Assembly (NCBI RefSeq): GCF_030013205.1
Contig: NZ_CP122648.1
Direction: 5' to 3' (one strand)
Length of the DNA: 64,000 nt
Origin: Escherichia coli
Lineage (GTDB): Bacteria > Pseudomonadota > Gammaproteobacteria > Enterobacterales > Enterobacteriaceae
The notes under the pieces were generated by a model. That model saw nothing but the letters and a program-made list of their open reading frames with translations. It was not told the DNA's origin and searched no databases. The translations under genes were made by a program, and so were the position numbers. Positions 1,194 through 6,872 of this stretch are shown here, in pieces. The number at the start of each line of letters is the position of its first letter. The first letter of the stretch is position 1.

Positions 1194-1646
1194 TTATTCC
1201 TTACCCAGCAATGCCTGCAGATCCTGCTTCAAAGAAGACATTTTATTCGCGTATTTCTCTTTGTTTTCCGCATCTTCAATCAGCTGAACAATTGTTTCAG
1301 AAAGCGTTTTACCGCGACGCTGCGCAAGACCAGCCAGACGTTGCCAGACAATAAATTCCAGATCGATCGATTTTTTGCGCGTATGCTGGTGTTCCGCATT
1401 AAAATGGCGCTTCCGTCTGGCCCGAATGGTTTGCTTCATGCGATTGACCAGTTCCGGATTCATATGCTTGTCAATCCAGCCATTTACCAGCACGGGTTCA
1501 TTTTCCAGCGAGAGCAACACATCGACGGCTTCCTGGGCGGCACTGGCTTCTATGTAACGGGTGATTAACTCCCCTTCGCGGTGCTTCTTCACCAGATACT
1601 TCCATTTCCAACCGCTTTCAAGATTTTCAAGTTGTTGATATTTCAT
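1194..1646 (-). CDS. matP: Macrodomain Ter protein MatP
   Basis: 150-aa [30 protein letters not shown]...; length and sequence match E. coli MatP (YcbG); synteny next to ompA. Confidence 0.93.
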
Positions 1647-1831
1647 AGCGATCTCAATGTTACCGTGTAACTCTTTACAGAATATCAGCTTTTTGGGTCA
1701 GTGAAGAAAAGAATCTCCATCCTGTGAGCTTTAACGCCCATGCCAGGAGTATTGTCGGTGCTTTCTACGTGTGCTGCAGTGCCGGTTACGGTATAATCGC
1801 GGCTTTGACAACAGACTAAAAAACATCAACT

Positions 1832-3592
1832 TTGACCATTACGAAACTTGCATGGCGTGACCTGGTTCCTGATACCGATAGCTATCAGGAAATATTTGCT
1901 CAGCCACATTTGATTGACGAAAACGATCCTTTATTCAGTGATACTCAACCGCGACTGCAATTTGCGCTGGAGCAGTTGCTGCATACGCGAGCATCCTCCT
2001 CTTTTATGCTGGCGAAGGCCCCGGAAGAGTCTGAGTATCTGAATCTTATTGCCGATGCCGCGCGTGCGCTACAAAGCGATGCAGGCCAACTGGTGGGCGG
2101 TCACTATGAGGTTTCCGGGCACACCATCCGCTTACGTAACGCAGTGAGTGCAGATGATAATTTTGCGACTTTAACGCAAGTTGTCGCTGCCGACTGGGTA
2201 GAAGCGGAACAACTCTTTGGCTGCCTGCGCCAGTTTAATGGCGACATTACCCTGCAGCCAGGTCTGGTGCATCAGGCAAATGGCGGTATTCTCATCATCT
2301 CTTTGCGTACACTGCTGGCGCAACCTCTGCTGTGGATGCGGCTGAAAAATATCGTTAACCGCGAGCGTTTTGACTGGGTTGCGTTTGATGAGTCGCGCCC
2401 TCTCCCCGTCACTGTGCCTTCGATGCCATTGAAGCTGAAAGTCATTCTGGTAGGCGAACGCGAATCATTGGCTGATTTCCAGGAGATGGAACCAGAGCTT
2501 TCAGAGCAGGCTATTTATAGCGAATTTGAAGATACTCTGCAGATTGTCGATGCGGAGTCAGTAAGCCAGTGGTGTCGCTGGGTGACATTGACCGCCAGAC
2601 ATAATCACTTACCTGCACCAGGAGCGGATGCCTGGCCGGTACTTATCCGCGAAGCAGCCCGCTACACCGGTGAACAAGAAACACTTCCGCTTAGCCCGCA
2701 GTGGATCCTCCGCCAGTGTAAAGAGGTCGCCTCCCTGTGCGATGGCGACACCTTCTCCGGCGAGCAGCTAAACTTAATGCTGCAGCAGCGTGAATGGCGT
2801 GAAGGTTTCCTCGCTGAACGCATGCAGGATGAGATCCTTCAGGAGCAAATCCTGATTGAAACCGAAGGCGAATGCATCGGGCAAATTAACGCCCTTTCGG
2901 TCATTGAATTTCCGGGTCATCCACGCGCTTTTGGCGAACCTTCTCGCATTAGCTGCGTTGTGCATATTGGCGATGGTGAATTCACCGACATCGAACGCAA
3001 AGCGGAGCTTGGCGGCAATATCCATGCGAAAGGGATGATGATCATGCAGGCGTTCCTGATGTCGGAACTACAGCTTGAGCAACAGATCCCCTTCTCAGCA
3101 TCGCTGACATTTGAGCAGTCATACAGTGAAGTGGATGGCGATAGTGCCTCGATGGCTGAACTCTGCGCCCTGATAAGCGCCCTCGCCGATGTGCCGGTGA
3201 ATCAGAGTATCGCTATCACAGGTTCAGTCGATCAGTTCGGTCGTGCCCAGCCGGTCGGTGGTTTAAATGAGAAAATCGAAGGCTTCTTTGCTATTTGCCA
3301 GCAACGTGAGTTAACCGGGAAACAAGGTGTCATTATCCCCACTGCTAACATTCGCCATTTAAGTCTTCACAGTGAACTGGTGAAAGCGGTAGAAGAAGGC
3401 AAATTCACCATCTGGGCAGTAGACGATGTGACTGACGCACTGCCGTTATTATTAAATCTGGTGTGGGATGGCGAAGGCCAAACGACGCTGATGCAAACCA
3501 TCCAGGAACGTATCGCGCAAGCATCGCAACAGGAAGGACGTCACCGTTTTCCATGGCCATTACGTTGGCTGAACTGGTTTATTCCGAACTGA
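1832..3592 (+). CDS. ycbZ: Lon-like protease homolog YcbZ (LonH)
   Basis: 586-aa [25 protein letters not shown]...; matches E. coli YcbZ in length and sequence; synteny matP-ycbZ-fabA. Confidence 0.93.
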
Positions 3593-3622
3593 TCGGACTT
3601 GTTCAGCGTACACGTGTTAGCT
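3587..3622 (+). promoter_or_regulatory. fabA promoter operator region: FadR site (AACTGATCGGACTTGTTC) followed by FabR palindrome (AGCGTACACGTGTTAGCT)
   Basis: Sequence read directly about 40-75 bp upstream of fabA ATG; matches the recalled fabA FadR/FabR operator arrangement; overlaps the last codons of ycbZ. Confidence 0.5.
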
Positions 3623-3660
3623 ATCCTGCGTGCTTCAATAAAATAAGGCTTACAGAGAAC

Positions 3661-4179
3661 ATGGTAGATAAACGCGAATCCTATACAAAAGAAGACCTTC
3701 TTGCCTCTGGTCGCGGTGAACTGTTTGGCGCTAAAGGTCCGCAATTGCCAGCACCGAACATGCTGATGATGGACCGTGTGGTCAAAATGACCGAAACGGG
3801 TGGTAACTTCGACAAAGGGTATGTTGAAGCAGAACTGGATATCAATCCGGATCTGTGGTTCTTCGGATGCCACTTCATTGGCGATCCGGTTATGCCGGGA
3901 TGCCTGGGCCTGGACGCAATGTGGCAGCTGGTAGGGTTCTACCTCGGCTGGCTGGGCGGCGAAGGTAAAGGCCGCGCGCTGGGCGTTGGCGAAGTGAAAT
4001 TCACCGGTCAGGTACTGCCGACAGCGAAAAAAGTGACCTACCGTATTCACTTTAAACGCATTGTTAACCGTCGTCTGATTATGGGCCTGGCGGATGGCGA
4101 AGTGCTGGTTGATGGTCGTTTGATCTATACCGCCAGCGACCTGAAAGTCGGTCTGTTCCAGGATACGTCTGCCTTCTGA
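3661..4179 (+). CDS. fabA: 3-hydroxydecanoyl-ACP dehydratase/isomerase FabA
   Basis: ORF track 3463..4179 trimmed to ATG at 3661 ([23 protein letters not shown]...); 172 aa; matches E. coli FabA. Confidence 0.95.
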
Positions 4180-4204
4180 TTAGAATCAGACAGAGTATCA
4201 AAAG

Positions 4205-4236
4205 GCGAAACCTCCGCAATGCGGAGGTTTCTTTTT
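4205..4236 (+). terminator. Rho-independent terminator downstream of fabA
   Basis: Stem CCTCCGC / GCGGAGG with AAT loop followed by TTTCTTTTT; lies between convergent fabA and rmf. Confidence 0.65.
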
Positions 4237-4248
4237 AAAGAGACAGAA

Positions 4249-4416
4249 TCAGGCCATTACTACCCTGTCCGCCATGGCTTCTCGCCAGCCTCCCAGCCAT
4301 TGTGACCTTTGATTCAGCGTCTGATAGGGACACATTTCTTTTGAGCGTCCGGTGATGCCGGCCTGATAACCACGTTGATGTGCCCGTTCCAGGCGATCTC
4401 GTTTTTGTCTCTTCAT
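4249..4416 (-). CDS. rmf: Ribosome modulation factor Rmf
   Basis: Not in the ORF track (55 aa, below cutoff; track 65-aa ORF 4235..4432 is a different frame). Manual translation of reverse strand gives MKRQKRDRLERAHQRGYQAGITGRSKEMCPYQTLNQRSQWLGGWREAMADRVVMA*, matching E. coli Rmf; synteny fabA-rmf-pqiC. Confidence 0.9.
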   Translation of the reverse strand: MKRQKRDRLERAHQRGYQAGITGRSKEMCPYQTLNQRSQWLGGWREAMADRVVMA

Positions 4417-4613
4417 GCCTCGTTTCCCTCATACTGGTTTCTGGTGGAAAAGAAAACAGTGATTACTAAATGTGCAATCACAGTTAAGCAATACCGCGAA
4501 TCATAACTGCCGTCAATGCGCAAAATTCACGCCACTGTCATATTTGTGAGCTACACGGGCATGTCGGTTGTACAAATAATGTGAAGAGGAACAACTTTTT
4601 CCGCAAGTTAGAA

Positions 4614-4652
4614 ACAAAAAAACCGCCTCAGGCAACATACCGGAGACGGTTA
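4614..4652 (-). terminator. Putative Rho-independent terminator downstream of pqiC
   Basis: On minus strand: 9-bp stem (one G-U pair) AACCGUCUC / GAGGCGGUU followed by U7 run; located just 3' of pqiC stop (4672). Confidence 0.5.
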
Positions 4653-4671
4653 TATTTACAAATCTTTATGA

Positions 4672-5235
4672 TTACGGTAGACGCTTTATCTCTTGCGCAA
4701 TAGAAGCGGCTTCCTGACTCCATACACTGGCCAACACTTTAACCATTTCATCGTAACCATCCTGAGTTTGCACCCCTTCCAGACGGAACGGACGTTTGAT
4801 CAGTTGTCCCTGGTGGTTCAACAGCCATTCACCACTGACAATGACCTTGCCATCATAGCGACCGTTAAACTCCGTTACGGTAACATTGAGCGTGTCCTGG
4901 GCGCTTCCCAGAGGCTGGGAGGCAACCACCCAGCCGGGCAGTTGCGTACTCAGGTTGGCAACCAGAGTGTTGCGCAACTGTTGATCCAACGGGCTGGCCC
5001 ACAAGTTGTTGTTGGCAATCACATACTTCACATCACTGGTTTGATAAACCACACCATTTCCGGCCAGATAGTCAGGAACAGCGACCTGCTCTACCCATAA
5101 CAGGCGATTACCCTGGCTGGCGGTACTTTGTGTACCGCTCTGCACCACAGGTAACTGGTAATAGTTTTTATTAATTTCGCCGGAGCTGCATCCGGCCAGC
5201 CACAGTGCTGCAATCGTCACTAGCCACTTTTTCAT
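4672..5235 (-). CDS. pqiC: Paraquat-inducible / intermembrane transport lipoprotein PqiC (YmbA)
   Basis: 187-aa ORF with lipoprotein signal MKKWLVTIAALWLAGCSSGE; matches E. coli PqiC; start overlaps pqiB stop by 4 bp. Confidence 0.92.
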   Translation of the reverse strand: MKKWLVTIAALWLAGCSSGEINKNYYQLPVVQSGTQSTASQGNRLLWVEQVAVPDYLAGNGVVYQTSDVKYVIANNNLWASPLDQQLRNTLVANLSTQLPGWVVASQPLGSAQDTLNVTVTEFNGRYDGKVIVSGEWLLNHQGQLIKRPFRLEGVQTQDGYDEMVKVLASVWSQEAASIAQEIKRLP

Positions 5236-6872
5236 TGTTTCGCCCTCTTCGGCTCTGGATCTTTTTTGTCCTTCGCTTCAAATACCAGCGCGTTACTCTT
5301 CTCGTTGAGCGTTTTCAGCACCGGTTGCAGTTCTCGCAACACCTGATCAAGTCGCTGCATATCCGCCACCATCTTGTTGTAGGCTGCGGAGCCAGGCTGG
5401 AAGCCCTGCATGCTGCGATTCAATTCACGCAACGTTGACTGCATATCCGTCGGTAACTGCTGCATCGACTGGCTGGCGAGGATCTTGTTCATGCTATCCA
5501 GCGTCGTTTGCAGGTTTTTCATTGTGCGCTGACTTTCAGAAAGCGTACTGGTTGCCTGTTCAATCATCGGATTCAATGGCAGTTTGTTGATCTTATCCAA
5601 CGCTTCCATCAGTCGTTGCTGGATTTGCGCCAGACCGCCGCTGACGGTCGGGATAATCTGATAACCATTAAATTCACGAATACCGGTTATTGCAGGCGTA
5701 TTTGGATAGAAATCGAGATCAACATACAGTGCGCCAGTGACCAGGTTTCCGGTTTTCAGCGATCCGCGTAAACCACGTTTCAACAATTCGCCAAGGTGCT
5801 CAACAACATCCGCATTTTCGCCAAGCTGCATTTTCAGCCGCTCTGGCTCGATACGAATCAGTACCGGAATACGGTAATCATCGTTAAATGTCTGACGCAT
5901 ATTCGGCGCAAAGAATGGCACTTTGCTTACGGTACCCAGGCGAATACCCCGGAATTCTACCGGAGCTCCCGGTTGCAGACCGCGTACCGAATCTTTAAAG
6001 AACATCAGATAATCAATGTGATCGGTGTACAACGAATCCTGAATGCTCTTCTGATCATCATACAAAACGAAAGCTGTTTTCGGTGCCACTGGCTGCCCTA
6101 AATCCAGACCTTCCGGCACATCAAAGCTGACACCGCCACTAAGCAGCGTTGTCAATGAGCCCATCTCCACACGCATTCCCGCTGACGTCAAATCAACCGC
6201 AATGCCACTATCTTTCCAGAAGCGAACATTGCTGGTCACCAGACGGTCATAAGGTGCATTGATGAACAGTTGATAGCTGATATTGCGTTTTTGCGTATCG
6301 AAGGTGCTGGTTTCAACCGAACCTACCCGATAGCCACGGAACAGCACGGGATCTCCTGGCGAGAGCTGCCCGGCTTTTTTGCTATCGAGAATCACACGAA
6401 TACCTTTCGCATCAGGCGGAGCCAACGGTGGCGAGTCCAGCAAATCGTATTTATCCATTTTGCTGCCTTTCGCGCCTGGCTGCAGTTCGATATAAACCCC
6501 AGACAGCAGCGTTCCCAGGCCGCTAATCCCTTCTCGACCAATCTGCGGTTTCACCACCCAAAAGACGGTATCTTTATGCAGCAATTTTTCCATACCGGAA
6601 TTCAGCCGCGCTTTGATTTCAACGTGCGTCAAATCATCAGCCAGTGTGGCGCTTTCAACCACGCCGACGTCAACGCTACGGCTTTTAATGGTGGTTTTAC
6701 CACCTTCTATTCCTTCCGCATTCGCGGTGATCAGGGTCACTTCCGGCCCCTGATGGCTGTAATGATAAAAAAGAACCCAAGCCCCAATGAGCGCCGTGAC
6801 GATAGGAAATATCCACACGGGAGACCAGTTCTTCACTTTCTGGATTTTGGCTTCCCCATTATTAGATTCCAT
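5232..6872 (-). CDS. pqiB: Intermembrane transport protein PqiB (MCE-domain protein)
   Basis: ORF track 5232..6932 trimmed to ATG at 6872 (MESNNGEAKIQKVKNWSPVWIFPIVT...); 546 aa; matches E. coli PqiB. Confidence 0.92.
   Translation of the reverse strand: MESNNGEAKIQKVKNWSPVWIFPIVTALIGAWVLFYHYSHQGPEVTLITANAEGIEGGKTTIKSRSVDVGVVESATLADDLTHVEIKARLNSGMEKLLHKDTVFWVVKPQIGREGISGLGTLLSGVYIELQPGAKGSKMDKYDLLDSPPLAPPDAKGIRVILDSKKAGQLSPGDPVLFRGYRVGSVETSTFDTQKRNISYQLFINAPYDRLVTSNVRFWKDSGIAVDLTSAGMRVEMGSLTTLLSGGVSFDVPEGLDLGQPVAPKTAFVLYDDQKSIQDSLYTDHIDYLMFFKDSVRGLQPGAPVEFRGIRLGTVSKVPFFAPNMRQTFNDDYRIPVLIRIEPERLKMQLGENADVVEHLGELLKRGLRGSLKTGNLVTGALYVDLDFYPNTPAITGIREFNGYQIIPTVSGGLAQIQQRLMEALDKINKLPLNPMIEQATSTLSESQRTMKNLQTTLDSMNKILASQSMQQLPTDMQSTLRELNRSMQGFQPGSAAYNKMVADMQRLDQVLRELQPVLKTLNEKSNALVFEAKDKKDPEPKRAKQ

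Follow-up and report, generated by a model that had tools for sequence, protein, structure and literature searches.

The window, by which the whole analysed stretch of 64,000 nucleotides from Escherichia coli is meant, carries on its minus strand rmf, the gene of ribosome modulation factor (RMF). The gene lies downstream of pqiC, which is encoded on the same strand, and faces the convergent fabA. The features of the locus are the following, with all positions referring to the window:

3661..4179, plus strand: fabA, 172 aa, convergent with and downstream of rmf (annotation of NZ_CP028192.1; Pfam FabA, 178.9 bits)
4207..4231, both strands: terminator-like hairpin between the convergent rmf and fabA, G+C-rich, with a perfect 11-bp stem and a 3-nt loop
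4235..4432, minus strand: 65-aa open reading frame overlapping rmf, ATG at 4430..4432; a by-product and no gene
4249..4416, minus strand: rmf, 55 codons from ATG to TGA, with the stop codon at 4249..4251 (direct translation)
4417..4474, minus strand: 5′ untranslated leader of rmf, provided that transcription starts at -58 as published for K-12
4418..4430, minus strand: putative ribosome-binding region of rmf, purine-rich, read from the sequence and identical to K-12
4475..4671, minus strand: promoter and regulatory spacer of rmf (full pqiC-rmf spacer 4417..4671, 255 bp)
4672..5235, minus strand: pqiC, 187 aa, upstream of rmf (annotation of NZ_CP028192.1 and K-12; Pfam ABC_trans_aux, 138.2 bits)

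A preceding sequence-only reading had identified the 55-codon frame as RMF and had named translation of the reverse complement of 4249..4416 as the check. This translation indeed yielded 55 codons with the RMF sequence, MKRQKRDRLERAHQRGYQAGITGRSKEMCPYQTLNQRSQWLGGWREAMADRVVMA, followed by a stop. All 55 residues could be aligned with PDB chain 6h4n_v, 54 of them being identical (E 8.3e-34), and the same 54/55 identity was obtained for the E. coli RMF chains in PDB 6H4N, 6H58, 9IOT and 4V8G (including 4v8g_AV; E about 1e-33). The lone mismatch to these structures is A22T. The product also passed the cut-offs of the Pfam family PF04957 (79.7 bits, cut-off 27.9, E 1.7e-22) and of the NCBIfam equivalog NF011162 (92.9 bits, cut-off 40, E 7.6e-27), both of which describe RMF. 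Its composition is strongly basic, with nine arginines and three lysines against two aspartates and three glutamates. Thirteen residues were reported to be invariant in 50 gammaproteobacterial RMFs, and alanine substitution of the 11 among them that were tested greatly reduced or abolished the formation of 100S ribosomes (PMC8126665). The product encoded in the window contains all 13 of them (M1, R3, K5, R11, A12, G16, G23, C29, P30, W40, G43, W44 and R45).

The genomic setting is that of the E. coli chromosome. The 601-bp region 4100..4700 recurs without a single difference in other genomes, NZ_CP028192.1 being one of them, and the rmf annotated in NZ_CP028192.1 by RefSeq (WP_001625028.1) maps exactly onto 4249..4416, between fabA and pqiC. 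The region around rmf was found in 5,425 of 5,426 complete E. coli genomes. The arrangement pqiC-rmf-fabA is also present in K-12 MG1655, Shimwellia pseudoproteus, 'Enterobacteriaceae bacterium 89' and Klebsiella pneumoniae, and in Shimwellia and 'Enterobacteriaceae bacterium 89' the order is kept up to ycbZ (pqiC-rmf-fabA-ycbZ). The possibility of a plasmid-borne rmf, raised by four places on plasmids in the E. coli set, was rejected. These records, like the 12 PLSDB records that match the rmf-fabA region, are 0.26-5.4 Mb in size and non-mobilisable, and they are chromosomes or chromosome fragments which were labelled as plasmids. With no evidence found to be contrary to the identification as rmf and with caveats that are minor, 4249..4416 on the minus strand is almost certainly the chromosomal rmf of E. 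coli with a rare A22T allele (probability of about 0.98). It is an ordinary and already known gene in its known place, and nothing about it is novel.

The exact 601-bp haplotype occurs at 100% in at least ten complete genomes, while most E. coli genomes are 95-99% identical over this region. Pigs were the source of seven of the ten carriers listed for this haplotype, two O139:H1 strains among them.

Expression signals around rmf

Counted from the rmf start codon, the putative ribosome-binding region has GAGGG at -14..-10, and GAGG recurs at -5..-2. For K-12, a single RpoD promoter of rmf was reported at -58 from the initiation codon, and the pqiC-rmf spacer (256 bp by the count of that paper) was used as rmf promoter probe (PMC6134199). 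If this start applies here, transcription of rmf would begin at about position 4474. A strict sigma-70 consensus scan of the rmf region did not yield any promoter. The best relaxed sigma-70-like pair, TTGACG (4511..4516) and TATTGC (4488..4493) with a spacer of 17 nt, predicts a start near -65. As this differs by about 7 nt from the published position, the two hexamers are not claimed as the rmf promoter. Similarly, a scan of the spacer for the CRP consensus (TGTGA-N6-TCACA) returned just one match, with 7 of 10 positions, at -179..-164. A promoter that resembles the consensus so little would fit the reported dependence of rmf on ppGpp and cAMP-CRP as well as on several further transcription factors (PMC8778775; PMC6134199). 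Over the 135 bp that precede the rmf ATG the window does not differ from K-12, and the same regulation is therefore to be expected.

The inverted repeat GTGATTGCACATTTAGTAATCAC at 4459..4481 on the minus strand, which is imperfect and has a T-rich run behind it, was flagged as terminator-like by the scan. It straddles the published rmf start (about 4474) and is also identical in K-12.

At the other end of the gene, the hairpin at 4207..4231 had a predicted folding energy of -20.8 kcal/mol on the rmf strand (z = -3.9 against shuffled sequences), and its sequence does not differ from K-12. It looks like a terminator which would act on both strands, terminator-like sites having been called on each of them. 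A permissive Rfam scan of 3400..5400 did not reveal any RNA family, as it returned just sub-threshold matches (21-26 bits, gathering thresholds of 50-60), most of which are due to terminator hairpins; in K-12, no RNA gene is annotated between pqiC and fabA. One of these matches, to GlmZ_SraJ at 4617..4799 on the minus strand (25.1 bits, gathering threshold 60, E 0.0014), covers the 3′ end of pqiC together with a terminator-like hairpin at 4622..4636 and is probably driven by the latter.

The overlapping frame and the A22T allele

The sequence-only reading had stated that rmf is present at this locus while being missed by the ORF track, which instead displayed a 65-aa ORF in another frame. Both statements hold. 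With the default floor of 60 aa, the ORF at 4235..4432 on the minus strand is the sole one listed across 4180..4670. When the list was compared with one made at a floor of 20 aa, both the 55-aa rmf and the 65-aa ORF were included, so that the absence of rmf is purely a consequence of the length floor. On the same strand, the 65-aa ORF starts 16 nt ahead of the rmf ATG, which places it in a different frame. The concern that the locus would be mis-called as a hypothetical protein was, by contrast, not borne out. RefSeq/PGAP calls rmf in the identical strain as well as in every E. coli record listed, and as annotation pipelines handle the gene correctly, the locus is in practice not at risk of being mis-annotated. 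The lesson is a more general one: a floor of 60 aa hides real small genes and can display a spurious longer overlapping frame in their place, and the same artefact is to be expected for any small protein on such ORF tracks.

The neighbouring fabA is affected by the same list in another way. It is started there at a GTG at 3463 (3463..4179, plus strand, 238 aa), while the annotated start lies at 3661. This over-extension results from the rule of taking the first start after a stop and represents a second artefact of this kind.

Compared with K-12, the window exhibits eight differences over 511 aligned bases. Only one of them is located in the coding sequence of rmf (b0953), namely base 4353 within codon 22 (4351..4353), where GCC is changed to ACC. 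Four lie in the distal part of the pqiC-rmf spacer (4577, 4595, 4606 and 4613; 161-197 nt before the rmf ATG), two at the 3′ terminus of pqiC or immediately beyond it (4670 and 4675) and one just after the stop codon of fabA (4183). To count the alleles, a 41-mer with the variant base in its middle was looked up in 5,426 complete E. coli genomes. The A22T 41-mer was present in 24 and the K-12 41-mer in 5,139 of them. All five A22T carriers listed were from pigs.

Two other readings of the locus have to be weighed against that of an ordinary rmf, the first being that the 65-aa ORF is the real gene, or a second, overlapping gene translated together with rmf. The frame is uninterrupted and starts with ATG in the window and in K-12, and it is longer than rmf. 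Yet, its product matched neither a Pfam nor an NCBIfam family, and the exact product did not occur in a collection of about 15 billion predicted proteins. The same collection does contain the exact RMF(A22T), named 'ribosome modulation factor', on at least 1000 contigs. In the orthologous loci of Shimwellia and 'Enterobacteriaceae bacterium 89' in-frame stops break the 65-aa frame, whereas the rmf frame is open there. Of the bases at which these two Enterobacteriaceae differ from the window, 13 of 17 and 11 of 16 occupy the third codon position of rmf. The substitutions follow the rmf frame, and the pattern indicates that purifying selection acts in the reading frame of rmf. The 65-aa ATG, which overlaps the upstream edge of the likely rmf ribosome-binding region, is not preceded by any purine-rich or Shine-Dalgarno-like stretch. 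Moreover, structures on the E. coli ribosome are available for RMF, the protein of the other frame. A coding role of the 65-aa ORF is accordingly improbable in the extreme. The lack of a family match, the absence of the product, the stops in relatives and the third-position changes identify the frame as one that is open by chance.

The other reading accepts rmf and supposes its A22T variant to be functionally impaired, so that the protein binds ribosomes but dimerises them poorly since residue 22 adjoins G23. The substitution G23A does abolish 100S formation while leaving binding unaffected (PMC8126665), and the allele counts given above show that A22T is rare. Against an impairment stands the variability of residue 22, which is not among the 13 invariant positions (PMC8126665): threonine is native at this position in the RMFs of Shimwellia and 'Enterobacteriaceae bacterium 89', and a V22 variant exists in E. 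coli. For I21A, a substitution of the neighbouring variable residue, ribosome binding was intact and, according to the authors, 100S formation was not significantly affected; dimer formation by I21A is marked as only faintly detected in their summary table (PMC8126665). Furthermore, a group of field isolates carries A22T as a fixed allele, so that it is evidently tolerated. An impaired RMF is therefore very unlikely, and the A22T allele is most likely neutral. As residue 22 is adjacent to G23, which is needed for dimerisation, this neutrality is something that we infer. Hardly any weight can be given to more elaborate versions of the two readings, in which the 65-aa ORF would be a young, Escherichia-specific gene translated at a low level or A22T would alter dimerisation in the lineage carrying it. 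All of the collected evidence counts against both the young overlapping gene and the altered dimerisation.

Comparison with known systems

What the rmf product may do in the cell can be described by analogy with K-12. According to the K-12 literature, this small basic protein would be made as growth slows, upon entry into stationary phase or starvation, with its transcription being driven by (p)ppGpp and cAMP-CRP. The rmf mRNA of K-12 is exceptionally long-lived, its half-life being about 24 min (PMC8778775). The protein would then bind to the 30S subunit beside the anti-Shine-Dalgarno end of the 16S rRNA and thereby block initiation; in the K-12 protein, R45 contacts C1536 of the 16S rRNA (PMC8126665; PMC8778775). 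Once bound, RMF would trigger the pairing of two 70S ribosomes to a 90S dimer, which HPF would mature to the inactive, translationally silent 100S or 'hibernating' ribosome. Binding to the 30S subunit and dimerisation of 70S ribosomes to 90S and, with HPF, 100S particles are documented for K-12 RMF (PMC8126665; PMC8778775). On the basis of this literature, the A22T protein is expected to be expressed in the same pattern, to bind ribosomes and to promote the formation of 100S particles.

K-12 Rmf (b0953, NP_415473.1; PDB 6H4N, 4V8G) has the same length of 55 aa, shares 54 of 55 residues with the window protein and is encoded in the same pqiC-rmf-fabA context. The two genes differ in A22 (GCC) of K-12 where the window has T22 (ACC, base 4353), besides the four SNPs in the distal spacer. 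UniProt P0AFW2 is presumably the entry of this K-12 protein. The RMFs of other Enterobacteriaceae, such as Shimwellia pseudoproteus and Klebsiella, fall into the same Pfam family and are encoded in the same gene order, and that of Shimwellia shares T22 with the window protein. These enterobacterial relatives differ at 5-6 of 55 residues, and among other gammaproteobacterial RMFs it is the C-terminal residues that vary. The RMF of Vibrio parahaemolyticus, for which an NMR structure is available (PDB 2JRM), belongs to the same Pfam family and aligns over residues 1-50 (E 1.5e-19).

In Klebsiella pneumoniae GCA_029455295.1 (locus 1501..1680), rmf is called with 59 aa and a C-terminus ending in ...EDGTNGLTLSL. 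This tail resembles the end of the alternative frame, which in E. coli reads ...NGLILSL. Apparently the frame of the Klebsiella gene is shifted by one base close to its 3′ end, either through a true mutation or through an error of sequencing.

A more distant likeness exists to CrpP and related Rmf-like proteins. The window protein is weakly similar to the model of the CrpP/Rmf-like fold (NF041886; 51.2 bits, cut-off 28), but stays below the cut-offs of the models for CrpP and for phage Rmf-like proteins (NF033696, 19.4 bits against a cut-off of 55; NF041887, 23.9 against 40). While CrpP/Rmf-like proteins belong to integrative elements and phages, the RMF encoded in the window is chromosomal and a true equivalog.
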